Of a stretch of DNA of 64,000 nt, positions 1-50,534 are shown piece after piece. How positions within the stretch are numbered: position 1 is the first letter of the stretch; every line of letters starts with the position of its first letter. Origin of the DNA: Amphiscolops sp. MND2022. Lineage: Eukaryota. The position numbers and the translations under genes are program-made. Under the pieces are notes generated by a model, which made no database searches, had not been told where the DNA came from, and saw only the letters and a program-made list of their open reading frames with translations. The stretch covers positions 16,246,001-16,310,000 of the forward strand of contig OZ076409.1 in assembly GCA_964187785.1 (NCBI GenBank), given 5' to 3'.

Positions 1-480
1 ATGCTAAAAACCACCAAATTTACACTATTAATCTGGAGAATAAAACTGTACAAGTTTTCACTGCAGTTGAAAACTTATACAATGAAAACGAAAACTAAAC
101 TGAAAAAATTCGGACCTTTTTGACTGGAACTTTAAAGTTCTAAATCTCTACAATACCATCATCAATCAACCCAATTCCCAATTCTTTTCGAGCACTAGTT
201 GTTCGCAACCTGTATGCAAAAAACGGGTTTTGAGAACAAACTCCTTCCAGGAGCAAACATCTTTTTTCATACATTCTCCAAACTACATTATACTAACTTC
301 ATACCAAAAAAAAACATTCCCATTTTGGCGCTTTCTCAAAAATGCCATAACCAAGCATCTTCATCTACATACTTAAGTTTTTTCAACACTTCAGTTACTC
401 ATATACTCATTTTATACATATACCTTAGACTTCATTACTTTTTACTTGTAAATTCTCAGTTTTCAATAAATTCTTTAAAA
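1..480 (+). mobile_element. 3' end of ORF1-only element family A (cut by window start)
   Basis: Matches the 3' end of the A copy at 3935-5917; ORF stop TAA at 96-98; ends AATAAATTCTTTAAAA directly before an SL copy. Confidence 0.9.
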
Positions 481-590
481 GCCTAATTGTTGTGATAAAC
501 TTATTAAATAGGTAAGTATTCCAACCCTATTGATAAGTTTTATTTGAAAGCAGACTGCGAAAGTGGTCTGCTGCCCAATTTTTGAACAAG
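481..590 (+). ncRNA. Putative spliced-leader (SL) RNA (regenerated downstream of an insert; 3' end approximate)
   Basis: Exon 481-511; donor AG|GTAAGT at 512; stem I AAACTTATTAAATAGG/CCTATTGATAAGTTT; stem II AGCAGACTGC-GAAA-GTGGTCTGCT at 549-572; Sm site AATTTTTGA at 577-585. Confidence 0.8.
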
Positions 591-679
591 GAACAAGCTA
601 GTCTGCACTAACTTAAAAGTTACGCGTATTTTGACCGAGAAAATTTTCGTATCATTGTACGTAATTTTGTTGTTAAGCA

Positions 680-685
680 TATAAA
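680..685 (+). promoter_or_regulatory. TATA-like box ~27 bp upstream of 5S (recurs in the other units)
   Basis: GCATATAAAGC at -27 relative to the 5S start at 707. Confidence 0.55.
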
Positions 686-706
686 GCTATTGATTCTACA
701 ATGATC

Positions 707-825
707 GGCTACGACCATACCATGTTGAATGCACCGGTTCTCGTCCGATCACCGAAGTTAAACAACATAGGGCCTGGTTAGTACTTGGATGGGAGACCGC
801 TTGGGAACACCAGGTGTTGTAGCCT
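707..825 (+). rRNA. 5S rRNA
   Basis: GGCTACGACCATACC...GGTTAGTACTTGGATGGGAGACC...GTGTTGTAGCCT; terminal stem GGCTAC/GTAGCC; followed by a T-run. Confidence 0.97.
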
Positions 826-830
826 TTTTT
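825..830 (+). terminator. Pol III oligo-dT terminator of 5S (each unit)
   Basis: TTTTTT directly after the 5S 3' end. Confidence 0.85.
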
Positions 831-835
831 GTCAG

Positions 836-1105
836 AAATGTGGTTTAACTTCGGTGACAGTTTTGCAAAAGGGGTCAAATTGAAAAGATAGCAAAAAACG
901 AACAACGCCATTAGAAAGAGCGTCCAAAAAAACCCCCATGCTGAAATTTTCGCCGCCATCACTTGAATTTTCATTGAGTTATGTCATTTTTACTATTTTC
1001 ACAAAATGTGGTTTAACTTCGGTGACAGTTTTGCAAAAGGGGTCAAAATGAACAGATAGCAAAAAACGGACAACGGCACTGGAAAGAGGGCCCAAAATTA
1101 CCCCT
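836..1105. repeat. Two ~100-bp direct subrepeats in the spacer (period 168 bp; recur in the other units)
   Basis: AAATGTGGTTTAACTTCGGTGACAGTTTTGCAAAAGGGGTCAAA... at 836 and 1004. Confidence 0.92.
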
Positions 1106-1309
1106 AAAACGTGTTTTTCACACTCCTGAGTCGACTTTTGATAATACATGGAATTTCATTTTTAAGCTTACTAATTTATGCTTTTCAGCATACATTTTCG
1201 TAATAGAGTCAAAATTTTGCTTTCTCGCAATTTTTCTGGAATATTTTTGTTTCATCAGATGTCAATAACTTGAAACGTCGTCTTTTCATGAGAATTTCTC
1301 CTCAAAACA

Positions 1310-1384
1310 AGTTGTTGGCTGGTAATGGTAAGTCCGTACCGCAGATAGGACTCTCGCGCTCCAAAAATTGACTCTTTGCTTTTA
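1310..1384 (+). promoter_or_regulatory. Presumed upstream promoter region of the SL RNA gene (boundaries unknown)
   Basis: Conserved, relatively GC-rich block (GGTAAGTCCGTACCGCAGATAGGACTCTCGCGCTCC) at about -60 to -23 of the SL start, where snRNA-type proximal elements usually lie. Position-based inference only. Confidence 0.4.
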
Positions 1385-1401
1385 GCCTAATTGTTGTGAT
1401 A

Positions 1402-3005
1402 CTGCGTGTGTCAGCAATTATTTGCTAACTCTACTCTCACTGCTGCGGCAGAGAAGACGAAAATTACCTGAACAATGCCTTTATTGACAGCAGAATTCAT
1501 CATTCCTTACACAAAAGAAGAAATTACCAGCCCAAACATAAAGCAAGCTGTTTACAAAGAATTCCTTTGCAAGCTTTTACATGCTTTATCGCCTACTCAT
1601 ATTGACAGCGTGACATGCATTAAATCGTATGTGTCCAAACATGCGCCAGCGCATGAGCATGAAAAGAAGCTTGAATGCATCAAAATTATTGCTCCAAACT
1701 CGATAGAAAACGACTTCAAAAACCTACTTCTTAAAGGAATTCCTTACAAAAACCGGATAATTTATGCATTCCAAAACAGTGATGTTTATTCTAACTCCTA
1801 CCCAAAGCAATTCACTTTGAAATTCCGCAATTTACCACACTTTTTAGAAGATGGAGAGATCGTGGAGGCTTGTAATCTGCAAGAGTACAAAATTTCCAAA
1901 TTACGCCACCAAAGAGTAAGAATTTCTGACGACATCGAAGCCTTTACTGGAATCTGTTATGCTGAAATAGAGATTGCCAATCAATGCCAATTAGAAAACA
2001 TCAAATCATGGAACCAACAAGCCTTTTTGAACCAGTTTGTTACTAATGAAATTCCCTTCAAATGTTACATTCAAACCTTGTTACAATGTGAGAATTGTAA
2101 CGAAGGAAAACGCCAATTTATGGGCCATCATAAGAAGCAATGCAAACATCACTCAACACAAAAAAACAATCTTAGCAATGAAGATACTGAGCCAATACCT
2201 TCTGAGGAGGAGGAGGAGTCAGCTGATGAACCTGAAAACAAAGCCACGAAAGTGGATCCCGATATTGCTTTTTTACCGTTTTACCTCGATGTGGACAACG
2301 AAATTATTCAGACTGTCAACAGAATGGAATCAAAATATCCTAAACTAGCAGAATGTGATCACAAAGGAGGTGATATCAACATCATTAACGATAAAAAAGT
2401 TGTTGTTAACCAACTAAGATATGTCCAAAAACTATCGGAATCAGCACAACAAGAGATGTTTGAAGACAAAGAGTGGAGAAGCCGAACCTCCTCTTCAAAG
2501 ATCGCCAACTACGATGCCTTCAAATACATCAAAGGAAGACTGGATGCCTTCTTTTACAAACCCGAGAACATCATTTATTTAGTAAATCTCCAAGGAAAAG
2601 TTAGATATGACTTTATCCCATTTGAAAAACAAGATTGATGCTATTTTTTGTAACAAACACAAATAACTCAAAACCCACTCCTTGATATGCTACACCCTCA
2701 AATCCCAAGTCTTTTAAAGTTCAATACCATGCTATTAAAATAGCCAAAAAACAGTTTGATCCAATAACTCCATCCAGGAGCAAACATCACTTTTACCCCA
2801 CATACTCAAGACTACATTATGCTAATTTCTTCAAAAAAAACAACGTTCTTTTTTGCTTGAACTTTCAAACAAGCTTCCATTTTTCACTCAGTACTTTTTC
2901 ATACTCTTATACAGTACTTTGTACACCTTTTATACCGTTTATATCTTTTATACAATTTATACTAACATTTTTGTTAGCGTAAAGTTTACAATAAAGTCTT
3001 CAAAA
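1402..3005 (+). mobile_element. ORF1-only non-autonomous retroelement, family B
   Basis: Flanked by the 17-bp duplication GCCTAATTGTTGTGATA (1385-1401 / 3006-3022); single ORF; ends AATAAAGTCTTCAAAA. Confidence 0.88.
1475..2638 (+). CDS. ORF1-like protein, family B (387 aa; CX2CX9HX4C knuckle, acidic linker, extra C-terminal domain)
   Basis: ATG-initiated ORF; YPKQFTLKFRNLP and CENCNEGKRQFMGHHKKQC align by eye with the autonomous ORF1. Confidence 0.85.
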   Translation: MPLLTAEFIIPYTKEEITSPNIKQAVYKEFLCKLLHALSPTHIDSVTCIKSYVSKHAPAHEHEKKLECIKIIAPNSIENDFKNLLLKGIPYKNRIIYAFQNSDVYSNSYPKQFTLKFRNLPHFLEDGEIVEACNLQEYKISKLRHQRVRISDDIEAFTGICYAEIEIANQCQLENIKSWNQQAFLNQFVTNEIPFKCYIQTLLQCENCNEGKRQFMGHHKKQCKHHSTQKNNLSNEDTEPIPSEEEEESADEPENKATKVDPDIAFLPFYLDVDNEIIQTVNRMESKYPKLAECDHKGGDINIINDKKVVVNQLRYVQKLSESAQQEMFEDKEWRSRTSSSKIANYDAFKYIKGRLDAFFYKPENIIYLVNLQGKVRYDFIPFEKQD

Positions 3006-3115
3006 GCCTAATTGTTGTGATAAACTTATTAAATAGGTAAGTATTCCAACCCTATTGATAAGTTTTATTTGAAAGCAGACTGCGAAAGTGGTCTGCTGCC
3101 CAATTTTTGAACAAG
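3006..3115 (+). ncRNA. Putative SL RNA copy (downstream of insert)
   Basis: Same sequence as 481-590. Confidence 0.75.
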
Positions 3116-3231
3116 GAACAAGCTAGTCTGCACTAACTTAAAAGTTACGCGTATTTTGACCGAGAAAATTTTCGTATCATTGTACGTAATTTTGTTGTTA
3201 AGCATATAAAGCTATTGATTCTACAATGATC

Positions 3232-3350
3232 GGCTACGACCATACCATGTTGAATGCACCGGTTCTCGTCCAATCACCGAAGTTAAACAACATAGGGCCT
3301 GGTTAGTACTTGGATGGGAGACCGCTTGGGAACACCAGGTGTTGTAGCCT
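3232..3350 (+). rRNA. 5S rRNA
   Basis: Near-identical to 707-825 (one substitution, GTCCAATC). Confidence 0.96.
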
Positions 3351-3934
3351 TTTTTGTCAGAAATGTGGTTTAACTTCGGTGACAGTTTTGCAAAAGGGGT
3401 CAAATTGAAAAGATAGCGAAAAACGGACAACGCCATTAGAAAGAGCGTCCAAAAAAACCCCCATGCTGAAATTTTCGCCGCCATCACTTGAATTTTCATT
3501 GAGTTATGTCATTTTTACTATTTTCACAAAATGTGGTTTAACTTCGGTGACAGTTTTGCAAAAGGGGTCAAAATGAACAGATAGCAAAAAACGGACAACG
3601 GCACTGGAAAGAGGGCCCAAAATTACCCCTAAAACGTGTTTTTCACACTCCTGAGTCGACTTTTGATAATACATGTAATTTCATTTTTAAGCTGACTAAT
3701 TTATGCTTTTCAGCATACATTTTCGTAATAGAGTCAAAATTTTGCTCACAAATTTTCTCACAATTTTTCTGGAATATTTTTGTTTCATCAGATGTCAATA
3801 ACTTGAAACGTCGTCTTTTCATGAGAATTTCTCCTCAAAACAAGTTGTTGGCTGGTAATGGTAAGTCCGTACCGCAGATAGGACTCTCGCGCTCCAAAAA
3901 TTGACTCTTTGCTTTTAGCCTAATTGTTGTGATA

Positions 3935-5917
3935 CGGCGTTACTCTGTCAGCCTGCAAACTTTGTTTGCACAGCGCCATCTTGCAAATTTTGCAGCAAAA
4001 GTTGCAAAAGTAATGACTAATTTGAACACGAGTGAGCTTGATCAACATCATAATGAAAATGTTGAGCAAAATTGTTACAAAAATGCAGTTATTTCCTTGT
4101 CGAAATCGAACTCAAATATGGACAAATTACCAATTATTATCAACTTTGCCTTACCACTGACATCTGAAATGTTCAAAAACAGCAAATTACTGGATTCAAT
4201 GTTTGTGGAAGCTGTTATGGCCGTCAAAAACCGACTTAACTCCAATGAAATTACCATCTTCAAAACTACAATTTTACGCAACAAAGGCAATTTGAAGTGT
4301 ATTACTGTGATCATTCCTTACAAACTTGAAAATGCAGCTTCCTCTCTTATTCACGAGGGCATTACTCTTCGCAATCGGAAAATACGGCCTTATTCTGTCA
4401 ATTATTCCAACCCGAACAACAATGTCTATCCAAAAAGATTACCAATATCTTTCCGAAACCTACCACACTTTCTGACGGATGAGGATATTTTGAGTAGCTG
4501 TGGTCTTCAAAACTTCAAATTTAGTAGCAAAAATTTTCATCAACAACGACGACTTCCTGATAGCAGCCTTTTTTATACAGGAGAGGCAAGAATTACAGTT
4601 TTAATTGACAATGAGAATGAGGAAAGTTTACTACAAAACTGGGCCAATAATGCATATGACAAAATGTTTAGTTCCAGTGGCATTTTTTTCAAATGTTGCT
4701 GTATCCCACTCCTCGAATGCTCTTTATGCGTCAATGAGAACCTTCCCAGTGCTCATCAACAATCAAGATGCCCAAAACAACTATCAGACGAACAGCAAAT
4801 ACAGAAAAACAGTGAATCTCAGAACCAGAAGTTAACAACTGACTACGTTATGGAAACTGCAGAAACAGAGCCAATGTCTAATGAACCTGAACTGTCAGAT
4901 TCAGATGATGCTGAACCAATCTCAAAGGCACCAAAGCAGACCGATGATGGTACTGAAACCGAATGCAACAACAACGTGGCAGAAACTGAACAACCATGCA
5001 TTAACAACTCAAAGAAAGATACCATTCCTATGCAAAAACCTAAACTAATGCATCGCTCAACTGAATGGAAATCCTCAACAGACCTTGCCCGAAATCAAGC
5101 AGATGACCAACAGTCAACGGCAAAGCATGGATATCATGAATACCCATTCTTTTTGGAAAAGAAACAAAACAAAATACTGACACCCGAAACTATTTTCAAC
5201 GAAATACCTCCTATAAAAGAACATGTGATCAAAACCCAACAAACTTCTGGCTACATCAATACACTAGACAAGGAAAAGAAAATTCAAAGGACCTTTTCAC
5301 TCGTACAACCACTGAAGAAAGAAAAACTTGAAGATCTTTTATCTGAATCAAACTGGAAACATTCTGACTCTAACACTATTTTAACTTCTCATTTTGAATT
5401 TTACTCATTGATCCGGAAGTTTGATCCATTCTATGATGCTACAAACCACCAAATTTACACTATTAATCTGGAGAATAAAATTGTACAAGTTTTCACTGCA
5501 GTTGAAAACTTATACAATGAAAACAAAAACTAAACTGAAAAATTTCGGACCTTTTTGACTGGAACTTTAAAGTTCTAAATCTCTACAATACCATCATCAA
5601 TCAACCCAATTCCCAATTCTTTTCGAGCACTAGTTGCTCGCAACCTGTATGCAAAAAACGGGTTTTGAAAACAAACTCCTTCCAGGAGCAAACATCTTTT
5701 TTTCATACATTCTCCAAACTACATTATACTAACTTCATACCTAAAAAAAAACATTCCCATTTTGGCGCTTTCTCAAAAATGCCATAACCAAGCATCTTCA
5801 TCTACATACTTCAGCTTTTTCAACACTTCAGTTACTCATATACTCATTTTATACCTATACCTTAGACTTCATTACTTTTTACTTGTAAATTCTCAGTTTT
5901 CAATAAATTCTTTAAAA
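3935..5917 (+). mobile_element. ORF1-only non-autonomous retroelement, family A
   Basis: 17-bp duplication at 3918-3934 / 5918-5934; ends AATAAATTCTTTAAAA. Confidence 0.9.
4013..5533 (+). CDS. ORF1-like protein, family A (506 aa from first ATG; the track's GTG start at 3929 lies in the SL duplication)
   Basis: YPKRLPISFRNLPHF, FYTGEARI, CSLCVNENLPSAHQQSRC knuckle; intact in 8 of 9 complete copies. Confidence 0.87.
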   Translation: MTNLNTSELDQHHNENVEQNCYKNAVISLSKSNSNMDKLPIIINFALPLTSEMFKNSKLLDSMFVEAVMAVKNRLNSNEITIFKTTILRNKGNLKCITVIIPYKLENAASSLIHEGITLRNRKIRPYSVNYSNPNNNVYPKRLPISFRNLPHFLTDEDILSSCGLQNFKFSSKNFHQQRRLPDSSLFYTGEARITVLIDNENEESLLQNWANNAYDKMFSSSGIFFKCCCIPLLECSLCVNENLPSAHQQSRCPKQLSDEQQIQKNSESQNQKLTTDYVMETAETEPMSNEPELSDSDDAEPISKAPKQTDDGTETECNNNVAETEQPCINNSKKDTIPMQKPKLMHRSTEWKSSTDLARNQADDQQSTAKHGYHEYPFFLEKKQNKILTPETIFNEIPPIKEHVIKTQQTSGYINTLDKEKKIQRTFSLVQPLKKEKLEDLLSESNWKHSDSNTILTSHFEFYSLIRKFDPFYDATNHQIYTINLENKIVQVFTAVENLYNENKN

Positions 5918-6027
5918 GCCTAATTGTTGTGATAAACTTATTAAATAGGTAAGTATTCCAACCCTATTGATAAGTTTTATTTGAAAGCAGACTGCGAAAG
6001 TGGTCTGCTGCCCAATTTTTGAACAAG
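5918..6027 (+). ncRNA. Putative SL RNA copy (downstream of insert)
   Basis: Same as 481-590. Confidence 0.75.
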
Positions 6028-6143
6028 GAACAAGCTAGTCTGCACTAACTTAAAAGTTACGCGTATTTTGACCGAGAAAATTTTCGTATCATTGTACGTA
6101 ATTTTGTTGTTAAGCATATAAAGCTATTGATTCTACAATGATC

Positions 6144-6262
6144 GGCTACGACCATACCATGTTGAATGCACCGGTTCTCGTCCGATCACCGAAGTTAAAC
6201 AACATAGGGCCTGGTTAGTACTTGGATGGGAGACCGCTTGGGAACACCAGGTGTTGTAGCCT
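6144..6262 (+). rRNA. 5S rRNA
   Basis: Same as 707-825. Confidence 0.97.
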
Positions 6263-6837
6263 TTTTTGTCAGAAATGTGGTTTAACTTCGGTGACAGTTT
6301 TGCAAAAGGGGTCAAATTGAAAAGATAGCAAAAAACGGACAACGCCATTAGAAAGAGCGTCCAAAAAACCCCCATGCTGAAATTTTCGCCGCCATCACTT
6401 GAATTTTCATTGAGTTATGTCATTTTTACTATTTTCACAAAATGTGGTTTAACTTCGGTGACAGTTTTGCAAAAGGGGTCAAAATGAACAGATAGCAAAA
6501 AACGGACAACGGCACTGGAAAGAGGGCCCAAAATTACCCCTAAAACGTGTTTTTCACACTCCTGAGTCGACTTTTGATAATACATGGAATTTCATTTCTA
6601 AGCTTACTAATTTATGCTTTTCAGCATACATTTTCGTAATAGAGTCAAAATTTTGCTTTCTCACAATTTTTCTGGAATATTTTTGTTTCATCAGATGTCA
6701 ATAACTTGAAACGTCGTCTTTTCATGAGAATTTCTCCTCAAAACAAGTTGTTGGCTGGTAATGGTAAGTCCGTACCGCAGATAGGACTCTCGCGCTCCAA
6801 AAATTGACTCTTTGCTTTTAGCCTAATTGTTGTGATA

Positions 6838-8265
6838 GCCGTGAACAGTTGACTTCTGACTTCTGACTTTCACGAAAAATTGCAAATGTCAACTGAAATA
6901 CCAAATCAAGTACGGAGCTATGCACAAATTCTTCATGAAAATTCAGCTAGTTTGCCTGTTTTTACCCCGATTATCGTTCGTTTCGTGTTACCAATTCCAA
7001 AAGAAATTTTACATAATGGCAAATTACTTGACAAACTGTTTATAGAATCCGTTATTGCTGTTCAAAAATGCTTACCAATTGCAAATGTTTCCCAAACAAC
7101 AATCTTTAAAAGTACAATCCAACGAAAAAAAGGAAACTTGAAAGCAATTACTGTTATTATCCCATCATTTTTGCGAAATGAAGCAAGAGAAATGTTAACT
7201 AAAGGTATTACAATGAACGGCAGAGTAATTCCTCCTTACTCCATTCATGACTCGTCAAAAACAGATGCTGATTACCCAAAAAACTTGAGAATTTCCTTTA
7301 GAAACATGCCTCATTGCATATCAAAAGAAGAAATAATTATATCTTGCGGATTAGAGGCTTTCAGGTTAGAAGAAATTGCTCATCAACAGAGACGGCTCCC
7401 TAATGGAAACCTGTTTTACACTGGTCTTGCCAGGGTGGAAGCTATTATTGCAAATCAAGAAGAGGAATGCAGACTTAAGGAATGGTCTAAACATGCAATC
7501 CAACAAACACTTTCTTGCAATGGAGCGACGTTTCAATGTTATTGCCCTTCCTTTACAGTTGCCAATGACCTGCAAAAAACCTCTGGTATGCATCACGAAC
7601 AATTATCAGAAGCCCCAGAACAAATGCAAGCTACAGAACCCTCAATTCAAAACGAAAACCAATCAGATCCCACAGCTAGTACCTCAAAAAAACCAGTGAA
7701 TTTCGAAGACGAAAATTTGGATTCCACTGGTGAAATAGACAATATTCAATCTGATCCGCCTGCTGAGGATTTAGAAAGTTCCTCATCTTGGGATGAAGAT
7801 TCATCTAAAAGTGGATCGTCAATTGAAAAACCTGCATCTAAAATCCAGAGGAGATCGTCACTCGAACAACTTACATCTAAAACCCAAAAGAGACATCAAC
7901 CGATCTATTATTATCATCGCGAACGAAAAACAATTCTTGATGAAAAAACGACATGGACTACTTACCCAGAGGCAAACTCTCTTCTAGATAACAAGCAGCT
8001 GATTCCTGTAGCACTTGTAACAGAAGAAGAACAAAGAATCATGTTTGAATATTTCCAATTTGGCTATAATTGAACTACTATCAGAAGATACGATGAATTT
8101 GCGATAATTAAAAGAAAATATAATGTATTCAGAATGCGTAAATATAAGAAAATTTTCTTTGTAAATCTCCGAGGTCAAGTCAAAAATGCCGTGATATTGG
8201 ATAAAATACTTTAGACCTCATTACCATTATACTTGTAAACTCTCAACAAAATAAATTCTTTAAAA
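6838..8265 (+). mobile_element. ORF1-only non-autonomous retroelement, family C (tandem with D)
   Basis: Duplication at 6821-6837 / 8266-8282; ends AATAAATTCTTTAAAA. Confidence 0.87.
6886..8073 (+). CDS. ORF1-like protein, family C; probable premature TGA (homologous frame continues to 8214)
   Basis: Clearly similar to family A (KGNLKAITVIIP, YPKNLRISFRNMPH, HQQRRLP, LFYTG); lacks the CX2C knuckle. Confidence 0.8.
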   Translation: MSTEIPNQVRSYAQILHENSASLPVFTPIIVRFVLPIPKEILHNGKLLDKLFIESVIAVQKCLPIANVSQTTIFKSTIQRKKGNLKAITVIIPSFLRNEAREMLTKGITMNGRVIPPYSIHDSSKTDADYPKNLRISFRNMPHCISKEEIIISCGLEAFRLEEIAHQQRRLPNGNLFYTGLARVEAIIANQEEECRLKEWSKHAIQQTLSCNGATFQCYCPSFTVANDLQKTSGMHHEQLSEAPEQMQATEPSIQNENQSDPTASTSKKPVNFEDENLDSTGEIDNIQSDPPAEDLESSSSWDEDSSKSGSSIEKPASKIQRRSSLEQLTSKTQKRHQPIYYYHRERKTILDEKTTWTTYPEANSLLDNKQLIPVALVTEEEQRIMFEYFQFGYN

Positions 8266-10617: not shown

Positions 10618-10857
10618 GCCTAATTGTTGTGATAAACTTATTAAATAGGTAAGTATTCCAACCTTGGAATATTTCTTGCCTGTTTGAGGTGTGAATCACA
10701 CTTACTTATCAATAGGGCCCAAAAGCCAGTAACCAAAAACCAGTAACCAATAACCAACCTGTACTTACTGTTTGAAAGGTAAGTATTCCAACCCTATTGA
10801 TAAGTTTTATTTGAAAGCAGACTGCGAAAGTGGTCTGCTGCCCAATTTTTGAACAAG
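10618..10857 (+). pseudogene. SL RNA gene disrupted by a 113-bp insertion at the splice-donor loop
   Basis: Unit is 130 bp longer; AGGTAAGTATTCCAACC duplicated at 10647-10663 and 10777-10793. Confidence 0.75.
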
Positions 10858-19809: not shown

Positions 19810-19919
19810 GCCTAATTGTTGTGATAAACTTATTAAATAGGTAAGTATTCCAACCCTATTGATAAGTTTTATTTGAAAGCAGACTGCGAAAGTGGTCTGC
19901 TGCCCAATTTTTGAACAAG
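19810..19919 (+). ncRNA. Putative SL RNA gene, uninterrupted (empty target site)
   Basis: Native upstream TTGCTTTTA runs directly into the full SL sequence. Confidence 0.82.
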
Positions 19920-20035
19920 GAACAAGCTAGTCTGCACTAACTTAAAAGTTACGCGTATTTTGACCGAGAAAATTTTCGTATCATTGTACGTAATTTTGTT
20001 GTTAAGCATATAAAGCTATTGATTCTACAATGATC

Positions 20036-20154
20036 GGCTACGACCATACCATGTTGAATGCACCGGTTCTCGTCCGATCACCGAAGTTAAACAACATAGG
20101 GCCTGGTTAGTACTTGGATGGGAGACCGCTTGGGAACACCAGGTGTTGTAGCCT
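20036..20154 (+). rRNA. 5S rRNA
   Basis: Same as 707-825. Confidence 0.97.
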
Positions 20155-20730
20155 TTTTTGTCAGAAATGTGGTTTAACTTCGGTGACAGTTTTGCAAAAG
20201 GGGTCAAATTGAAAAGATAGCAAAAAACGGACAACGCCATTAGAAAGAGCGTCCAAAAAAACCCCCATGCTGAAATTTTCGCCGCCATCACTTGAATTTT
20301 CATTGAGTTATGTCATTTTTACTATTTTCACAAAATGTGGTTTAACTTCGGTGACAGTTTTGCAAAAGGGGTCAAAATGAACAGATAGCAAAAAACGGAC
20401 AACGGCACTGGAAAGAGGGCCCAAAATTACCCCTAAAACGTGTTTTTCACACTCCTGAGTCGACTTTTGATAATACATGGAATTTCATTTTTAAGCTTAC
20501 TAATTTATGCTTTTCAGCATACATTTTCGTAATAGAGTCAAAATTTTGCTTTCTCACAATTTTTCTGGAATATTTTTGTTTCATCAGATGTCAATAACTT
20601 GAAACGTCGTCTTTTCATGAGAATTTCTCCTCAAAACAAGTTGTTGGCTGGTAATGGTAAGTCCGTACCGCAGATAGGACTCTCGCGCTCCAAAAATTGA
20701 CTCTTTGCTTTTAGCCTAATTGTTGTGATA

Positions 20731-20795
20731 CTTTGTATTACATTTGTGATTACTTTGTATTTGTAAATCTTCAGGTTTAAATAAATTCTTTAAAA
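20731..20795 (+). mobile_element. 65-bp mini-insert (5'-truncated or minimal non-coding retroelement)
   Basis: Full 17-bp duplication at 20714-20730 / 20796-20812; ends TTGTAAA...AATAAATTCTTTAAAA. Confidence 0.8.
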
Positions 20796-23140: not shown

Positions 23141-23928
23141 TTTTTGTCAGAAATGTGGTTTAACTTCGGTGACAGTTTTGCAAAAGGGGTCAAATTGAAA
23201 AGATAGCAAAAAACGGACAACGCCATTAGAAAGAGCGTCCAAAAAAACCCCCATGCTGAAATTTTCGCCGCCATCACTTGAATTTTCATTGAGTTATGTC
23301 ATTTTTACTATTTTCACAAAATGTGGTTTAACTTCGGTGACAGTTTTGCAAAAGGGGTCAAAATGAACAGATAGCAAAAAACGGACAACGGCACTGGAAA
23401 GAGGGCCCAAAATTACCCCTAAAACGTGTTTTTCACACTCCTGAGTCGACTTTTGATAATACATGGAATTTCATTTTTAAGCTTACCAATTTATGCTTTT
23501 CAGCATACATTTTCGTAATAGAGTCAAAATTTTGCTTTCTCACAATTTTTCTGGAATATTTTTGTTTCATCAGATGTCAATAACTTGAAACGTCGTCTTT
23601 TCATGAGAATTTCTCCTCAAAACAAGTTGTTGGCTGGTAATGGTAAGTCCGTACCGCAGATAGGACTCTCGCGCTCCAACAATTGACTCTTTGCTTTTAG
23701 CCTAATTGTTGTTCACGCGTCGGTTGGTTAGTTATCTTTGACTTTTGACTTCTGATTGTGAAAAACTTTTTTGACGAGTTTTTAACACATAGTACCGCTA
23801 AAACTCTAGAAGTTTAACGAAAAAATTGTTTATTTGGGTTTATACCCCTTTGCACTTTACCCCCTCTGGGTTTATACCCCCCCTTGGGTTTATACTCCCT
23901 TTTGGATAGAGGATAGGAAAACGACTTC

Positions 23929-25260
23929 ATGATTCTTGACGACGATGTTGCTTCTGGTAATGTGGACGTAACAAAAATGCCGATGGATGGTCACGACAAT
24001 ACTGAATATATTCCACCTATTGAAAGCCTCAGCCTTGTTCAATTGTCGGAGCAATCGCAATCTGGGTCTCCGTCACTTACACCACCACCAACATCTTCTC
24101 TACAGAACATACAATCGGCAATAAACATGCAATTATACAGCGCTGTTGCAGGTGCCAACACTCCACCATCTCGCACGACAGCAATAATTAAAATGAAAAT
24201 CATTCCACCATTACAAAAACAACACTTCACAACCAAGGACAACTTCACTACTGCAACCAATCAATGTTTTTCAGCAATTTTACGTTGCTTTCCACCTACA
24301 TACAGACAACAGCTTACTATTTCAAAATCATTTACAATTGTCGGGACAAGACATTTGCATTCAATTAATGTAGTGGCGCCTGTCACAGCCCAGGACATTG
24401 TATCAAAATTGCAAACAACAGGAATATCAATGCTTGGCAAAACTGTATTTCCATCGACAGACAACTTTCTCACTAATTTACCTGGACTCTATCCACGATA
24501 CACTCAAGTGAGACTTCTACATGCACCAGCACAATGCGATGACGAGACCTTAACAGAACTATTACTTCTTCCGGCAGATACGACAATCATAGGATTCAAA
24601 CGTCAGACAGACACGATTGATGGTATGTCCTTTTTCAATGGCAAAATAGCATGCACGATAAAAATCAACAATACAACTCATGAAGAAGAACTACGACAAT
24701 GGTCGTTGGATCAACATGAAAATCCCACAATGATTTGGGAGGAGATTCCTATCTTTGCATTTATTCCCTCACTTCACAATTGCACGTTCTGTAAACAACA
24801 TAACAAACCTCACTTTGGACATGACATTGCCTGGTGCAAACATGCAAAAGCACATCCAACGACTCCACCATCACCTCCTCTACCACAACAGACATCAACT
24901 ACAACTTCGCAGATGCCTCTGCCTCCTCCTTCTTCTTCTGCTACTCCATCTGTTATCGTGCCAACTCCTCCTACTTTGGTTAACAACAACTTGGGTTTAG
25001 CTGACGTACCTGTTACAACGACTGATGATTGGCAACCTGTAACTAAGAAGACTTTCCCTAAACACAGTTTGGTTAGAACGAGGTCTGTTATCAAGGCGAA
25101 AAGACCAAAACACCCGAGCCCTGTAACTGAAGTTAACCCCAATTTGACAGAACCTACGATGACGGCACCGTTCCTTCCGACTACACCCATTTACAATTCA
25201 TTTGACAGCAAGCGGTATTCTAAATCTTCCAGGTCTAAACATGATAGTGTTCAGCCTTAA
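23929..25260 (+). CDS. ORF1p (gag-like nucleic-acid-binding protein; CTFCKQHNKPHFGHDIAWC knuckle; Pro/Thr-rich tail)
   Basis: 443-aa ATG ORF directly upstream of ORF2; open in all 4 copies. Confidence 0.9.
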   Translation: MILDDDVASGNVDVTKMPMDGHDNTEYIPPIESLSLVQLSEQSQSGSPSLTPPPTSSLQNIQSAINMQLYSAVAGANTPPSRTTAIIKMKIIPPLQKQHFTTKDNFTTATNQCFSAILRCFPPTYRQQLTISKSFTIVGTRHLHSINVVAPVTAQDIVSKLQTTGISMLGKTVFPSTDNFLTNLPGLYPRYTQVRLLHAPAQCDDETLTELLLLPADTTIIGFKRQTDTIDGMSFFNGKIACTIKINNTTHEEELRQWSLDQHENPTMIWEEIPIFAFIPSLHNCTFCKQHNKPHFGHDIAWCKHAKAHPTTPPSPPLPQQTSTTTSQMPLPPPSSSATPSVIVPTPPTLVNNNLGLADVPVTTTDDWQPVTKKTFPKHSLVRTRSVIKAKRPKHPSPVTEVNPNLTEPTMTAPFLPTTPIYNSFDSKRYSKSSRSKHDSVQP

Positions 25261-28200
25261 TTGTAGAGGACTGAAGGATCCTCTTCGCCTTGCCATGACT
25301 CTGACTGCTTGTCAGCGTCATGGTGTGAAAAATTTTGTTCTTTTCCTACAAGAAACTAAGATTTCTGAATTTTATATCAATCATAGAAAACTACTTACAC
25401 AACACCATCTCTCGTACTGCATGGTTCCTGCCTCTGATACTGCAGGTGGATTGGTGACAATTTTTCCGTCTTCTTTCCACATAACTTACCGTTTTAACAA
25501 TGAATCCATGCTCCTATTGCGTTTTCAAGAATATAATATCACTTTTAGCAACTGTTATGTCAATCCGCTTGCTTTTCATCTGGAAAAGCTTATTCATGGT
25601 TTCCAACAGCTTTCTCTTCTATCTTCTAGTTCTCACATACTTGGTGGAGATTTTAACTGTTTATCAACCCGTGCTGACACATCTAATGTTAATATTCGAA
25701 GTAATGATTTCCGCTTACTTCGTTTTCGAAAACTTATGAATCTTATGCACCTGCTGGATGTCACACCATGTGCTCCAGCCTCGGCTGCACATCTGTTCAC
25801 ACACTATGATAAAAGGTATAATACATTTAGTCGTTTAGACTACTTTTTTACATCGAGTGTTGACTTCTCTCTCGAAACTGAAGTCATTCCTTTTTCGGAT
25901 CACAAGTTAATTAAGCTTTGTGAAGCGGCATCTTTTACTCCAGCAAACAGTCATTGGAAATTAAATGACAACATTCTGCAGTATCACCATGCAGTACGGG
26001 AGGTTTTGGTGAGTTCTATTGCATCCCGGTCTACGGATTCAGAGTGTATCCTATCGAACTATGATGTCATTAAAAATCTTGTTAGGGATAAACTCCGTAT
26101 CTTTTGTATCCAGAATCATAGACGTAATCTTTTTGAAGAAAATCACCTGAAAGAACTAATACTTGGTGCAGAGAAATATCTACAAATTTTTGGCGTAGAT
26201 TCCAAAACTATTTCTCGTCTTTCAGATTTAAATAAAAAATTGATGGAACTCCAGCACCAGAATGCTCGTAAATGCCTTAAACAGGTGAAAATGTTTTATG
26301 TTGATGCCAATCATGGTGATCCTCAAGTTATTAAAAAACACCTTTCAAATATGAGAAAATCCGTACATATTTCTCAAATACAAGACGACAATGGTGAGGT
26401 CTTGACTACTGATGAGCAGATTTTTGAAGCTTTTCATATGCATTACTCAGATCGTTTTTCCATTCCGCAGGTCAATATCAATAATGATTCCCATGTCAAG
26501 CAGCTGCAAGATGACATTATTGGTACTTTTTGTAGTGTTAAGAGATCTGATATTGAAAATATTCGCACTCTAACCAGAGACCGGGATATGATTAGTGAAC
26601 AAGAAGTTATTAATGCCATTACCAAATTGAATTCTGAAAGTGCTCCTGGTCCTGATGGCCTCACTTCCAACTTTTATAAAGCTCATCAGGAAGTTCTGAG
26701 TCCTCTACTCTGCAGGCTGTTTAACCAGATGGTTACTGATGGTTGGATGCCGCTATCTTTCTCCAGAGCCATTATAAAACTGATTCCTAAAAAACCCAAC
26801 GCCAATCGTGTTGAAGATTTTCGTCCCATCAGTCTTATTAATACAGACCAAAAAATACTCTCTCATATTTTGTCGGAACGAGTTCGCATTCCTGTTGATA
26901 AGCTTATTGGTCCCCACCAATCTGCTTATCTTCCTGGGCGTCACATACACTCTTCTTTATTGAAAGTCTCCTTAAACTTGGAAACCATGCCGTCAAATAA
27001 TTCTCTCATCGCTATTGATTTTAGCAAAGCCTTTGATAAACTAAGTCGAACATTTATCTTTGCGTTATTAGAAAAAATTGGCTTGCACGAAAACACAGTC
27101 AAATTGATTCGCATCATGTATATGCATAATATTGCCTATCTTGACATCAATGGTCAACTCTCTCAACCTGTTCTTATGGAAAATGGAGTTAGGCAAGGCT
27201 GCCCTTTATCCGCGCTCATTTTTATTCTAGGCATTGAACCCCTTCTTCATGCAATTCAGCACTCCTTCAACATTAGATCGGATATGCCGTTTAAAATTAT
27301 CTCGTATGCGGATGATCTTACTTGTGGTATTCACACTGATAATATTCAAGATCTTTTTGATATCATTGATACATTTTCTGGCGTTACGAATTTATCTGTT
27401 AATCAATCTAAAACTGAAATTCTTACATTGAGTAGTCTTCGTCCTCCTCTCCAATCTTGTGACGTTGTTAAAATACTGGGTGTTCACTTTAGTTTGGGCA
27501 ACTCTGCTAGACCTTTCTCTGACTTCATGAACTATGCGCAACGAAGTGGTCAGTATTGTAACAAATACAATACTCTAATAGCTCGTGCGCGAAATATTCA
27601 TACATTTGTTATGCAAAAATTAGTTCATGAAATTCGCCATCTTTATGTCCTAAGGCCTCAATTAGACAAAATTGATAGTATTTTCATTGATGCTATTTGG
27701 CTTGGCCGCAAACACAATCTAAGTAAATTTATTCTCCAGAGACCATGGTCGGCGATGGGTATTGGTCTTCGGAATTTCCGTCAAACTATTGTTTCTTCCA
27801 AAATTATCGACTGCTTCAACTTTCTCTACGAAAACAATTTGCCCGATAATCTTAAACTGTTACTCCAATCTAGGTTTTTTAGAAATCTTAAATTCTTGTG
27901 TCGCACATTTAAATGCTCCATTTCCTTTCCAAACTCCACCACCTGTACTCTTTCTATTGATGACCGTCAACTTGTGATTTCCACCCCTCTTCCCACTAAA
28001 AAAATTTATCATTTTCTTACAGACCGGTCAACTTCGGCAGCTTTTTGCCGAATCTCTAGTATGGCAGAGAAATTATCTGTTCCTGCTTTTTCTATCTTTT
28101 CCTTCATCCGTCACTTGTGGAAGCATCCCTCGTATGCTGCTTTCGAGAAAAATTATTTATATCTGTTTTTCCTTAATTGCTACTTAGAGAAAACCAAAAA

Positions 28201-28492
28201 ACAAGATTTGGGCTTAGTGTTTTCAGCTCATTGCTGTTTTTGTGGTGTTGAAGACGAAACCTTCTCACATCTTATTACTGAATGTCAGCATATTCCATCT
28301 CTCAATTTCTTTAAAACTCCTAGTGATTGCTGTCTAGATTTTCAAAACATGAATGCAATTTACCCTTTCAAACGTCTGATAGCTCTCCTAATTTCCTCAT
28401 GGAGCGAAGATCCGCTCAGATTCTCTAAGTATTTTTTGAATTGTGTCTCCTTAAGGCATCCAACCATTCTTAACCATCAGGCTGTAACGTAA
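25241..28492 (+). CDS. ORF2p: APE-type endonuclease + reverse transcriptase + C-terminal CCHC zinc knuckle
   Basis: APE motifs SLNCRGL, LQETK, GGDFN, SRLDY, SDH; RT motifs PGPDG, FRPISL, DFSKAFD, GVRQGCPLS, YADD; CFCGVEDETFSHLITEC. ATG at 25241 overlaps the ORF1 end by 20 bp (track start TTG 25202). Confidence 0.97.
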   Translation: MIVFSLNCRGLKDPLRLAMTLTACQRHGVKNFVLFLQETKISEFYINHRKLLTQHHLSYCMVPASDTAGGLVTIFPSSFHITYRFNNESMLLLRFQEYNITFSNCYVNPLAFHLEKLIHGFQQLSLLSSSSHILGGDFNCLSTRADTSNVNIRSNDFRLLRFRKLMNLMHLLDVTPCAPASAAHLFTHYDKRYNTFSRLDYFFTSSVDFSLETEVIPFSDHKLIKLCEAASFTPANSHWKLNDNILQYHHAVREVLVSSIASRSTDSECILSNYDVIKNLVRDKLRIFCIQNHRRNLFEENHLKELILGAEKYLQIFGVDSKTISRLSDLNKKLMELQHQNARKCLKQVKMFYVDANHGDPQVIKKHLSNMRKSVHISQIQDDNGEVLTTDEQIFEAFHMHYSDRFSIPQVNINNDSHVKQLQDDIIGTFCSVKRSDIENIRTLTRDRDMISEQEVINAITKLNSESAPGPDGLTSNFYKAHQEVLSPLLCRLFNQMVTDGWMPLSFSRAIIKLIPKKPNANRVEDFRPISLINTDQKILSHILSERVRIPVDKLIGPHQSAYLPGRHIHSSLLKVSLNLETMPSNNSLIAIDFSKAFDKLSRTFIFALLEKIGLHENTVKLIRIMYMHNIAYLDINGQLSQPVLMENGVRQGCPLSALIFILGIEPLLHAIQHSFNIRSDMPFKIISYADDLTCGIHTDNIQDLFDIIDTFSGVTNLSVNQSKTEILTLSSLRPPLQSCDVVKILGVHFSLGNSARPFSDFMNYAQRSGQYCNKYNTLIARARNIHTFVMQKLVHEIRHLYVLRPQLDKIDSIFIDAIWLGRKHNLSKFILQRPWSAMGIGLRNFRQTIVSSKIIDCFNFLYENNLPDNLKLLLQSRFFRNLKFLCRTFKCSISFPNSTTCTLSIDDRQLVISTPLPTKKIYHFLTDRSTSAAFCRISSMAEKLSVPAFSIFSFIRHLWKHPSYAAFEKNYLYLFFLNCYLEKTKKQDLGLVFSAHCCFCGVEDETFSHLITECQHIPSLNFFKTPSDCCLDFQNMNAIYPFKRLIALLISSWSEDPLRFSKYFLNCVSLRHPTILNHQAVT

Positions 28493-28639
28493 CTAAGTTC
28501 AATTATATTTATATCTTGCAACCAATGAACCATTCACTTACTTTGATTAGCTACTGAATTGTCTGAATTATGAACTTGGTCTACGCTATTTGATTGATTC
28601 ATTTGTTCCTACTGATTTACTGTAATTAATTCTTTAAAA

Positions 28640-36047: not shown

Positions 36048-36836
36048 TTTTTGTCAGAAATGTGGTTTAACTTCGGTGACAGTTTTGCAAAAGGGGTCAA
36101 ATTGAAAAGATAGCAAAAAACGGACAACGCCATTAGAAAGAGCGTCCAAAAAAACCCCCATGCTGAAATTTTCGCCGCCATCACTTGAATTTTCATTGAG
36201 TTATGTCATTTTTACTATTTTCACAAAATGTGGTTTAACTTCGGTGACAGTTTTGCAAAAGGGGTCAAAATGAACAGATAGCAAAAAACGGACAACGGCA
36301 CTGGAAAGAGGGCCCAAAATTACCCCTAAAACGTGTTTTTCACACTCCTGAGTCGACTTTTGATAATACATGGAATTTCATTTTTAAGCTTACTAATTTA
36401 TGCTTTTCAGCATACATTTTCGTAATAGAGTCAAAATTTTGCTTTCTCACAATTTTTCTGGAATATTTTTGTTTCATCAGATGTCAATAACTTGAAACGT
36501 CGTCTTTTCATGAGAATTTCTCCTCAAAACAAGTTGTTGGCTGGTAATGGTAAGTCCGTACCGCAGATAGGACTCTCGCGCTCCAAAAAATGACTCTTTG
36601 CTTTTAGCCTAATTGTTGTTCACGCGTCGGTTGGTTAGTTATCTTTGACTTTTGACTTCTGATTGTGAAAAACTTTTTTGACGAGTTTTTAACACATAGT
36701 ACCGCTAAAACTCTGGAAGTTTAACGAAAAAATTGTTTATTTGGGTTTATACCCCTTTGCACTTTACCCCCTCTGGGTTTATACCCCCCCCTTGGGTTTA
36801 TACTCCCTTTTGGATAGAGGATAGGAAAACGACTTC

Positions 36837-38168
36837 ATGATTCTTGACGACGATGTTGCTTCTGGGAATGTGGACGTAACAAAAATGCCGATGGATGGTC
36901 ACGACAATACTGAATATATTCCACCTATTGAAAGCCTCAGCCTTGTTCAATTGTCGGAGCAATCGCAATCTGGGTCTCCGTCACTTACACCACCACCAAC
37001 ATCTTCTCTACAGAACATACAATCGGCAATAAACACGCAATTATACAGCGCTGTTGCAGGTGCCAACACTCCACCATCTCGCACGACAGCAATAATTAAA
37101 ATGAAAATCATTCCACCATTACAAAAACAACACTTCACAACCAAGGACAACTTCACTACTGCAACCAATCAATGTTTTTCAGCAATTTTACGTTGCTTTC
37201 CACCTACATACAGACAACAGCTTACTATTTCAAAATCATTTACAATTGTCGGGACAAGACATTTGCATTCAATTAATGTAGTGGCGCCTGTCACAGCCCA
37301 GGACATTGTATCAAAATTGCAAACAACAGGAATATCAATGCTTGGCAAAACTGTATTTCCATCGACAGACAACTTTCTCACTAATTTACCTGGACTCTAT
37401 CCACGATACACTCAAGTGAGACTTCTACATGCACCAGCACAATGCGATGACGAGACCTTAACAGAACTATTACATCTTCCGGCAGATACGACAATCATAG
37501 GATTCAAACGTCAGACAGACACGATTGATGGTATGTCCTTTTTCAATGGCAAAATAGCATGCACGATAAAAATCAACAATACAACTCATGAAGAAGAACT
37601 ACGACAATGGTCGTTGGATCAACATGAAAATCCCACAATGATTTGGGAGGAGATTCCTATCTTTGCATTTATTCCCTCACTTCACAATTGCACTTTCTGT
37701 AAACAACATAACAAACCTCACTTTGGACATGACATTGCCTGGTGCAAACATGCAAAAGCACATCCAACGACTCCACCATCACCTCCTCTACCACAACAGA
37801 CATCAACTACAACTTCGCAGATGCCTCTGCCTCCTCCTTCTTCTTCTGCTACTCCATCTGTTATTGCGCCAACTCCTCCTACTTTGGTTAACAACAACTT
37901 GGGTTTAGCTGACGTACCTGTTACAACGACTGATGATTGGCAACCTGTAACTAAGAAGACTTTCCCTAAACACAGTTTGGTTAGAACGAGGTCTGTTATC
38001 AAGGCGAAAAGACCAAAACACCCGAGCCCTGTAACTGAAGTTAACCCCAATTTGACAGAACCTACGATGACGGCACCGTTCCTTCCGACTACACCCATTT
38101 ACAATTCATTTGACAGCAAGCGGTATTCTAAATCTTCCAGGTCTAAACATGATAGTGTTCAGCCTTAA
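36837..38168 (+). CDS. ORF1p
   Basis: Near-identical to 23929-25260. Confidence 0.9.
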   Translation: MILDDDVASGNVDVTKMPMDGHDNTEYIPPIESLSLVQLSEQSQSGSPSLTPPPTSSLQNIQSAINTQLYSAVAGANTPPSRTTAIIKMKIIPPLQKQHFTTKDNFTTATNQCFSAILRCFPPTYRQQLTISKSFTIVGTRHLHSINVVAPVTAQDIVSKLQTTGISMLGKTVFPSTDNFLTNLPGLYPRYTQVRLLHAPAQCDDETLTELLHLPADTTIIGFKRQTDTIDGMSFFNGKIACTIKINNTTHEEELRQWSLDQHENPTMIWEEIPIFAFIPSLHNCTFCKQHNKPHFGHDIAWCKHAKAHPTTPPSPPLPQQTSTTTSQMPLPPPSSSATPSVIAPTPPTLVNNNLGLADVPVTTTDDWQPVTKKTFPKHSLVRTRSVIKAKRPKHPSPVTEVNPNLTEPTMTAPFLPTTPIYNSFDSKRYSKSSRSKHDSVQP

Positions 38169-41100: not shown

Positions 41101-41400
41101 ACCAAAAAACAAGATTTGGGCTTAGTGTTTTCAGCTCATTGCTGTTTTTGTGGTGTTGAAGACGAAACCTTCTCACATCTTATTACTGAATGTCAGCATA
41201 TTCCATCTCTCAATTTCTTTAAAACTCCTAGTGATTGCTGTCTAGATTTTCAAAACATGAATGCAATTTACCCTTTCAAACGTCTGATAGCTCTCCTAAT
41301 TTCCTCATGGAGCGAAGATCCGCTCAGATTCTCTAAATATTTTTTGAATTGTGTCTCCTTAAGGCATCCAACCATTCTTAACCATCAGGCTGTAACGTAA
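38149..41400 (+). pseudogene. ORF2 APE-RT with premature stop TAT>TAG at 41041-41043 (loses C-terminal zinc knuckle)
   Basis: Frame continues after the TAG to 41400 as in the intact copy. Confidence 0.9.
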
Positions 41401-41553
41401 CTAAGTTCAATTATATTTATATCTTGCAACCAATGAACCATACACTTACTTTGATTAGCTACTGAATTGTCTGAATTATGAACTTGGTCATGACCTACGC
41501 TATTTGATTGATTCATTTGTTCCTACTGATTTACTGTAATTAATTCTTTAAAA

Positions 41554-41898: not shown

Positions 41899-42689
41899 TT
41901 TTTGTCAGAAATGTGGTTTAACTTCGGTGACAGTTTTGCAAAAGGGGTCAAATTGAAAAGATAGCAAAAAACGGACAACGCCATTAGAAAGAGCGTCCAA
42001 AAAACCCCCATGCTGAAATTTTCGCCGCCATCACTTGAATTTTCATTGAGTTATGTCATTTTTACTATTTTCACAAAATGTGGTTTAACTTCGGTGACAG
42101 TTTTGCAAAAGGGGTCAAAATGAACAGATAGCAAAAAACGGACAACGGCACTGGAAAGAGGGCCCAAAATTACCCCTAAAACGTGTTTTTCACACTCCTG
42201 AGTCGACTTTTGATAATACATGGAATTTCATTTTTAAGCTTACTAATTTATGCTTTTCAGCATACATTTTCGTAATAGAGTCAAAATTTTGCTTTCTCAC
42301 AATTTTTCTGGAATATTTTTGTTTCATCAGATGTCAATAACTTGAAACGTCGTCTTTTCATGAGAATTTCTCCTCAAAACAAGTTGTTGGCTGGTAATGG
42401 TAAGTCCGTACCGCAGATAGGACTCTCGCGCTCCAAAAATTGACTCTTTGCTTTTAGCCTAATTGTTCACGCGTCGGTTGGTTAGTTATCTTTGACTTTT
42501 GACTTCTGATTGTGAAAAACTTTTTTGACGAGTTTTTAACACATAGTAAAAAAAACCGCTAAAACTCTAGAAGTTTAACGAAAAAATTGTTTATTTGGGT
42601 TTATACCCCTTTGCACTTTACCCCCTCTGGGTTTATACCCCCCCTTGGGTTTATACTCCCTTTTGGATAGAGGATAGGAAAACGACTTC

Positions 42690-47000: not shown

Positions 47001-47252
47001 TGTGGTGTTGAAGACGAAACCTTCTCACATCTTATTACTGAATGTCAGCATATTCCATCTCTCAATTTCTTTAAAACTCCTAGTGATTGCTGTCTAGATT
47101 TTCAAAACATGAATGCAATTTACCCTTTCAAACGTCTGATAGCTCTCCTAATTTCCTCATGGAGCGAAGATCCGCTCAGATTCTCTAAGTATTTTTTGAA
47201 TTGTGTCTCCTTAAGGCATCCAACCATTCTTAACCATCAGGCTGTAACGTAA
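44002..47252 (+). pseudogene. ORF2 APE-RT with a 1-bp deletion near 46766
   Basis: AAAAATTATC versus AAAAATTTATC in the intact copy; C-terminus continues in another frame (46821-47252). Could be a sequencing indel. Confidence 0.82.
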
Positions 47253-47405
47253 CTAAGTTCAATTATATTTATATCTTGCAACCAATGAACCATTCACTTA
47301 CTTTGATTAGCTACTGAATTGTCTGAATTATGAACTTGGTCATGACCTACGCTATTTGATTGATTCATTTGTTCCTACTGATTTACTGTAATTAATTCTT
47401 TAAAA

Positions 47406-47515
47406 GCCTAATTGTTGTGATAAACTTATTAAATAGGTAAGTATTCCAACCCTATTGATAAGTTTTATTTGAAAGCAGACTGCGAAAGTGGTCTGCTGCC
47501 CAATTTTTGAACAAG
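47406..47515 (+). ncRNA. Putative SL RNA copy (downstream of insert)
   Basis: Same as 481-590. Confidence 0.75.
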
Positions 47516-47631
47516 GAACAAGCTAGTCTGCACTAACTTAAAAGTTACGCGTATTTTGACCGAGAAAATTTTCGTATCATTGTACGTAATTTTGTTGTTA
47601 AGCATATAAAGCTATTGATTCTACAATGATC

Positions 47632-47750
47632 GGCTACGACCATACCATGTTGAATGCACCGGTTCTCGTCCGATCACCGAAGTTAAACAACATAGGGCCT
47701 GGTTAGTACTTGGATGGGAGACCGCTTGGGAACACCAGGTGTTGTAGCCT
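47632..47750 (+). rRNA. 5S rRNA
   Basis: Same as 707-825. Confidence 0.97.
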
Positions 47751-50419: not shown

Positions 50420-50534
50420 GAACAAGCTAGTCTGCACTAACTTAAAGTTACGCGTATTTTGACCGAGAAAATTTTCGTATCATTGTACGTAATTTTGTTG
50501 TTAAGCATATAAAGCTATTGATTCTACAATGATC

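Follow-up and report, generated by a model that had tools for sequence, protein, structure and literature searches.

Spliced-leader (SL) RNA genes are linked to 5S rRNA genes in nematodes and euglenozoans. The two are also linked in Oikopleura, as described in PMC8008620, and SL genes are the targets of the specific non-LTR retrotransposons CRE, SLACS and CZAR in trypanosomatids and NeSL in nematodes (PMC3636483, PMC4640811). Specific elements with an APE-type endonuclease are assigned to the Tx1 and R1 clades, with targets that include U2, U5, 5S, microsatellites and transposons (PMC4640811, PMC4494074, PMC8869645, PMC3747384). Two non-autonomous groups are also relevant here: HAL1 (half-L1) elements, which are L1 derivatives encoding ORF1p only (PMC5753468), and the crocodilian SINEU, which are SINEs with U1 or U2 heads that Tx1 elements likely mobilise and whose transcription may start from flanking promoters (PMC4494074). 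According to the same source, U1/U2-type snRNA promoters lie upstream, with none internal. PMC2481426 had already described SL addition for an acoel, and the leader of the acoel Symsagittifera roscoffensis has been rebuilt from unmapped transcript 5' ends, with 10,433 genes (30.2%) called trans-spliced and several SL genes and a predicted SL RNA fold described (PMC9911081).

Here we analyze an SL RNA gene at 481-590 of a 64,000-nucleotide stretch of acoel DNA, referred to below as the window. We consider it probable that this gene is a copy of the published acoel SL gene belonging to a 904-bp SL-5S tandem unit, that it was rebuilt downstream of a retroelement whose insertion point was the first base of the gene, that it was likely left promoterless, and that LINEs reach the SL start by the targeting mechanism proposed below.

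The SL-5S array and the copy at 481-590

The preliminary description of this DNA had proposed an ATG-free 31-nt exon, a splice donor within a stem-loop of about 15 bp, a second hairpin with a GAAA loop and an Sm-type site, and inspection and folding located each of them where it had been placed (Table 1). The donor junction at 511/512 reads AG|GTAAGTAT and lies at the top of stem I, which has 15 bp (497-540); the second hairpin has 10 bp with its loop at 559-562, and the putative Sm-type site reads AATTTTTGA. The SL RNA fold has a z score of -4.51, with 0 of 200 shuffles equally good. The proposed complementarity between the donor and the 5' end of U1 was recovered as well, since AGGTAAGTAT is complementary to ATACTTACCT, the head of a U1-derived stretch in the same genome (L136). 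Common variants of the putative Sm-type site in the arrays are AATTTTTTGA and AATTTT(T)CGA, and homogenised sub-arrays (C1 array right half, C12, C13) differ among themselves at this site (AATTTTTGA, AATTTTTTGA, AATTTTCGA, AATTTTTCGA).

Exact motifs identify 1,241 SL hairpins and 1,316 5S genes in the genome. The claim that SL is linked to 5S held both across the arrays on C1 (taken whole), C12 and C13 (each taken in part), where a 5S gene lies 140-175 bases downstream of 418 of 423 SL hairpins, and in the window, where 21 SL exon copies (18 exact, three with one mismatch) and 21 5S genes are all on the plus strand. Units measure 904-905, 907 or about 1,074 bp, and in a plain unit the SL start precedes the 5S start by 226 bases. 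The window forms the element-rich left edge of a 440-kb array that has 285 5S genes and a nearly clean core. Over C1:16.23-16.67 Mb, insertions crowd both array edges and leave a core of ~100 almost clean units, which recalls the insertion-free domains of rDNA. A block of ~35 kb is also duplicated with shared private variants (window 42457-59926 and C1:16317933-16341252), as either a real higher-order repeat or an assembly effect.

Table 1. Annotated features of the window, in window coordinates
Feature	Position	Strand	Remarks
ORF1-only element family B, 3' part	1..480	+	tail ...AATTCTTTAAAA abutting SL copy; element starts 1.5 kb before window
Spliced-leader exon	480..511	+	481-511 published; A480 likely first base
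SL RNA intron part	512..590	+	donor GTAAGTAT 512-519; stem I 3' arm to 540; GAAA hairpin 549-572; putative Sm-type site 577-585; 3' limit nominal
5S rRNA gene, T run after	707..825	+	117.5 bits
Spacer	826..1384	+	3' end ...CTCTTTGCTTTTA = native upstream of next SL gene
ORF1-only element A	1385..3005	+	SL nt 1-17 head; 387-aa ORF 1475-2638: two RRMs, CCHC-type knuckle, extra C-terminal domain
ORF1-only element B, 506 aa	3918..5917	+	more copies start 11652, 14554, 20796, 32799, 48310, 51212, 54120, 57021
ORF1-only element C, 395 aa in this copy	6821..8265	+	stop before C-terminal domain ends
ORF1-only element D, 385 aa	8266..9713	+	stacked behind C at same site; also 17457, 30447
113-bp site-2 insert	10664..10776	+	between two AGGTAAGTATTCCAACC copies; partly antisense to leader and donor
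Plain 904-bp SL-5S unit	19810..20713	+	native upstream, uninterrupted SL gene; also 29544, 35703
82-bp site-1 insert	20714..20795	+	17-bp head + ~65 bp; probably 5'-truncated element
Autonomous-type LINE	23700..28639	+	SL nt 1-13 head; ORF1 23929-25260; ORF2 25241-28492 (APE, RT, zf-RVT)
Further window LINE copies	36607-41553, 42457-47405, 59926 to window end	+	same LINE family

The implied status of an ordinary gene was not supported for the copy at 481. Its native upstream sequence, present at 19810, 29544 and 35703, is absent and has been replaced by the tail of the family B element. An element tail precedes 17 of the 21 SL exons in the window, and its 21 native upstream regions lead into a site-1 element (an insertion at the SL start) in 17 cases, into a copy with a short insert in one and into an intact gene in three. 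Throughout the C1 array, 210 SL copies are native, 52 stand behind elements and 22 carry inserts at a second site close to the donor (site 2), while site-1 elements occupy 53 native upstream regions. The 3' end of the spacer likely holds the SL promoter, a position that we infer, and the 481 copy, judged by its sequence context, is likely cut off from it and promoterless. By eye, no upstream motif common to SL, U2, U5 and U1 was evident; a bacterial promoter scan was empty, but the bacterial consensus is irrelevant to this genome.

We think it unlikely that an SL copy behind an element is still active, whether through a tail that mimics a promoter or through processing of read-through RNA into SL RNA. 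The 481 copy is itself perfect, and SL copies that follow elements show, measured against their own 5S, no excess of decay over native ones (the 52 units behind elements hold 23 SL and 15 5S variants, the 107 native units 12 and 8; Fisher p = 1, Sm-tract indel excluded), both of which would suit continued activity. The tails of unrelated families also converge on a similar 9-mer (TCTTTAAAA in 37 of 55, TCTTCAAAA in 10 of 55), but a common tail is expected for recognition by RT. Moreover, the entire native upstream sequence is replaced, the tails differ beyond about 15 bases, and private SL variants, including donor-adjacent ones, are found in 17 of 52 such copies.

Elements at the SL start and their proposed transcription

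The LINE in the window has a separate ORF1 and an ORF2 with an N-terminal APE, an RT and a C-terminal zf-RVT, which is the ORF1 plus APE-RT-zinc ORF2 layout of the L1 group. The best PDB match of its ORF2 is human L1 ORF2p (1e-56, versus 5e-21 for R2). CRE and NeSL elements have a single ORF with a C-terminal restriction-like endonuclease, whereas two ORFs and APE motifs are found here. The L1-group LINEs of this genome also bear the marks of TPRT, namely target-site duplication and 5'-truncated copies, and they share target specificity with the Tx1 clade, more weakly in family e. The 5' UTR of the window LINE contains degenerate TGGGTTTATACCCCC palindromic repeats (23833-23902).

Phylogenetic analysis was performed on 46 RT sequences, 18 from this genome and 28 chosen among 120 listed database matches. 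The families of this genome form their own clade (99/96) with unnamed database proteins, in which the site-1 families fall into two groups and the site-2 LINE stands apart; the one named Tx1 protein in the tree (P0097) sits on a long branch. A further 20 ORF2 loci were fetched, and 15 of them were scanned with Rfam. A U2-targeting relative (L121, L122, L124, L125) has its 3' junction in U2 arrays before nt 19 (GGCTAAG) and a head of U2 nt 1-25, and in a U1-targeting relative (L136, L154) the LINE ends before U1 nt 8 while the neighbouring insert starts with U1 nt 1-11. The U2 site GGCTAAG resembles the SL site GCCTAAT. Related LINEs also lie head-to-head with tRNA genes, within ~100 bases of them, and end in A runs (L129:8253-9336, L130:2247-3738).

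The SL head is present in all nine off-array copies whose 5' end was reached; it consists of the leader's first 15-17 bases and starts at SL nt 1-2 in eight of the nine and at nt 7 in the other. In two copies (L134, L135) the head lies inside a 15-bp duplication of foreign target, and a 5'-truncated copy (L138) is headless with a duplication of ~16 bp; six other headed copies (L127, L128, L150, L141-L143) showed no duplication. The 3' flank of off-array copies begins with GCC in nine of ten cases and with GGCC in one. These genomic copies show the SL head to be RNA-borne. It is likely that the SL promoter drives the elements and that their RNAs begin at the SL start, which the head fits without proving.

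Unit anatomy, leader identity, two fixed sites, duplications in 5'-truncated copies and off-array leader heads are all directly visible in the DNA, and we propose the following mechanism. The LINE endonuclease would nick the bottom strand at A|GCC, the SL start, where reverse transcription would be primed, and the top strand would be cut ~17 bases downstream of the nick. The cDNA end, with the leader's first 13-17 bases, could then anneal to the overhang. An element inserted in this way would have the upstream SL promoter immediately in front of it, its transcription would begin at the SL start, and the intact SL sequence behind the element would be left without a promoter. The 5S gene, which has an internal Pol III promoter, would be untouched by the insertion. 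LINE ORF2 proteins would act in trans to copy the ORF1-only families and the short inserts, and SL RNA for trans-splicing would come mostly from uninterrupted units, 210 of the 284 classified in the C1 array.

Alternatively, the SL genes may be no more than a safe multicopy site for elements with internal promoters, with the SL head as a passenger that aids 5' joining. L1 elements commonly have internal promoters, the 5' UTRs here (65-650 bases) could hold them, and a head on off-array copies is compatible with an internal promoter too, which counts against promoter capture. We nevertheless judge this alternative quite unlikely, given that nearly all off-array heads begin at the first or second SL base and that the U2- and U1-targeting relatives likewise begin within the first bases of their own target RNAs.

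At site 1, a class partly defined by the SL start motif, 55 of 55 C1-array elements end at A|GCC; the 5' junctions occupy SL nt 11-18, mostly with one fixed position in each family, and 5'-truncated copies have duplications of 16-18 bp. At site 2, the end point of all 18 anchored inserts is SL nt 30, which lies two bases ahead of the donor; four more could not be anchored. No third insertion site appeared in the C1 array, and four odd segments in the C12 array resolved to the same 3' junctions. The occupants comprise seven site-1 LINE families (a-g), one site-2 LINE, the ORF1-only families A-D with a B-like sister and the short inserts of 95-113 bp, these family counts being lower bounds (at least seven site-1 LINE and at least four ORF1-only families). 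Genome-wide, 18 of 18 exact matches to the 3' end of the window LINE abut an SL start, and 46 of 49 matches to the family B head fall within array intervals. All 32 matches to family A at >=90% lie, by coordinate, in array intervals or small SL-bearing contigs, and the 35 matches to the site-2 LINE, checked in part, are divided between three chromosomal intervals (27) and small contigs (8). Family e, with at least four copies outside the arrays, appears to have looser specificity. The RTs of the seven site-1 families are only 40-55% identical to that of the window LINE, so the target site has been kept over long divergence.

It is very improbable that such a pattern arose from chance insertions multiplied by unequal crossing-over, without target specificity. 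Array blocks are indeed duplicated, so that copy counts do not represent independent events, and the array edges are rich in elements. However, two exact junctions are common to eight divergent LINE families, with truncations of varied length and on three chromosomes, and insertions off the arrays are also at A|GCC, all of which contradicts this explanation. A community of L1-group elements that targets the SL gene is well supported in the DNA.

The leader and its retrocopies

Over 31 nt, the window leader is identical to the published leader of S. roscoffensis (PMC9911081). The host belongs to S. roscoffensis or to a closely related species. The SL RNA itself is therefore already known, and the gene that had been called unannotated encodes a leader that, together with a predicted fold, is in print in that paper. 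Trans-splicing with the proposed leader was borne out both by the transcript 5' ends in PMC9911081 and by leader-headed retrocopies in the genome. The proposed 31-mer matches the published sequence, but its first base probably lies one position earlier, at A480 rather than G481. Among 22 distinct full-length leader retrocopies, A precedes GCC in 20 (background 31%, p = 9e-9) and position -2 is mixed. Because the SL gene also has A at 480, this bias makes a 32-nt leader starting at A480 likely; a junction bias of the retroposing enzyme is another explanation for the A. As printed in PMC9911081, the published leader has 32 nt with a final A that is absent from the gene here, and it likely lacks the 5' A.

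The leader's last 21 nt followed by a non-G base have 638 exact dispersed matches over the chromosomes, and a control had none. The SL intron is missing from these leader-headed sequences, which is what retrocopies of trans-spliced RNAs should look like. The first 30 of them (L001-L030) have no likeness to the window 3' of the leader, and by eye many resemble the 5' ends of CR1/L2-type LINEs. One retrocopy family has two leader junctions, separated by 27 nt, and the second of them directly follows TTTTCAG, as trans-splicing to alternative acceptors would predict. We also observed that 16 of the 22 distinct leader-headed LINE-like copies continue with TTTCAG, TTTCCG or CTTCAG. Taken from these copies, the evidence suggests repeated rounds of trans-splicing and retroposition, and SL-capped transposon RNAs are known from Hydra (PMC12220107). 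Leader-headed retrocopies offer a genome-only route to mapping leader ends and acceptors. A TTTTAG|CCTAATT at 1385, considered as a 3' splice site, was dropped as native upstream sequence followed by an SL start.

Rfam searches at gathering, and at E<=10 in window 1-7000, placed no family over 481-590, so the different snRNA against which the preliminary description had asked for a check did not appear even at the looser threshold. The idea that a different snRNA or only a repeat accounts for the 110-nt RNA, which gains from the lack of a matching Rfam SL model, has a negligible chance of being right, as the retrocopies stop exactly at the AG preceding the donor and the recovery of the leader from transcript 5' ends refutes it (PMC9911081).

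ORF1-only elements, short inserts and comparison with known systems

The ORF1-only proteins align with LINE ORF1s, and their elements share an insertion site and tails with the LINEs. They show the HAL1-like trait of an ORF1 homolog alone whose open frame has been kept. Families A and D share 48% identity; their dN is 0.45, and their dS, at about 2.9, is near saturation. A model of an ORF1-only protein (pLDDT 78.6) gave predicted structural matches to tandem-RRM proteins that are weak, with low TM, but consistent (36 at E<=0.001). For the ORF1-type proteins, no significant match came from Pfam or from PDB sequences, and the only leads in the Atlas, all below 0.9, pointed to CCHC/RRM and ZCCHC3-like clusters. 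The ORF1-only proteins have in common a C-terminal domain of ~125 aa that is absent from the LINE ORF1s aligned; it had no match to ORF2 proteins and no usable Atlas match. Two more ORFs of ~500 aa with this domain (37% identity) lie away from the SL arrays, at C5:70417172-70420594.

Exon and donor are both present in the short inserts as reverse complement. Comparison of the aligned blocks by eye gives three A-to-G differences for the 113-bp form and seven plus one C-to-T for the 95-bp form, all of them G-U compatible. The predicted fold of a read-through RNA reaches -73.8 kcal/mol versus -53.5 +/- 3.2 with the insert shuffled (0/300), and both donors would be <=6% unpaired in it; in the native fold, five of six positions are 43-100% unpaired. 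Such pairing would already follow from an origin as an inverted copy, and the A-to-G pattern could come from selection or ADAR editing. All but one of the 45 genome matches to the short insert lie in array intervals or small contigs, and the sole dispersed copy is an orphan unit with spacer. That orphan, a diverged SL-5S unit on C2 (L144), has its short insert cut off in the SL intron. A role of the short insert as a longer working leader is not favoured: a pro rata estimate (638 x 45/1241) predicts ~23 spliced copies outside the arrays, and none was evident at the 45 places, two of which were inspected.

A broader picture can be offered only tentatively, and we hold it to be doubtful as a whole. 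Acoel SL arrays may host an undescribed APE-type LINE radiation that captures the SL promoter and start and that has given rise to two parasites of its own, one being ORF1-only elements equipped with a new domain and the other short RNAs with an SL head, whose antisense leader would hide both donors. The latter would escape trans-splicing, likely keep the Sm site, and could be SL snRNP mimics or LINE dampers.

In the literature searched we found no report of SL-5S linkage in acoels and no APE-type SL-targeting element, Repbase Reports and subscription journals being outside its coverage. The searched text and supplement text of PMC9911081, with figures and image tables outside the scope, make no mention of rRNA, Tx1, arrays or inserted elements. 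Acoel SL-5S linkage is a new instance of a known arrangement, and the array would put acoels among the lineages that have it. Oikopleura likewise has SL and 5S in one repeat, but PMC8008620 describes inverted repeats, with 27 copies found in that assembly, whereas the ~1,240 copies here are head-to-tail on the same strand.

The ORF1 of Tx1 elements has tandem RRMs and a knuckle, as in the elements here. The Tx1 clade (Tx1L, Keno in U2, Kibi, Koshi, Tx1-Mar; U5 and 5S targets) also combines APE with specificity for multicopy RNA genes, but the portions of PMC4640811 and PMC4494074 devoted to it name no SL target, and here two sites and at least eight families are found in one gene. HAL1 elements, as characterized in PMC5753468, are likewise ORF1-only in coding, but the elements here are site-specific and SL-headed and have the extra domain. 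The short inserts, of 95-113 bp, may resemble SINEU as short retroposons with a Pol II snRNA head; they differ from SINEU as described in PMC4494074 in their position inside the gene that would drive them and in their antisense relation to the exon and donor of that gene. These elements make it possible to test how snRNA-headed retroposons are transcribed.

CRE, SLACS, CZAR and NeSL share SL-gene targeting with the LINEs described here, but they have one ORF and a restriction-like endonuclease, compared with the ORF1 and APE-RT ORF2 of an L1-group element (PMC3636483, PMC4640811), and NeSL is associated with target deletions (PMC3636483) where these LINEs make duplications. Related endonucleases that have switched among the SL start, the SL donor, U2, U1 and tRNA-flanking sites would form a natural series for the study of APE specificity change. 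The elements would represent a third independent origin of SL targeting, this time with an APE endonuclease.
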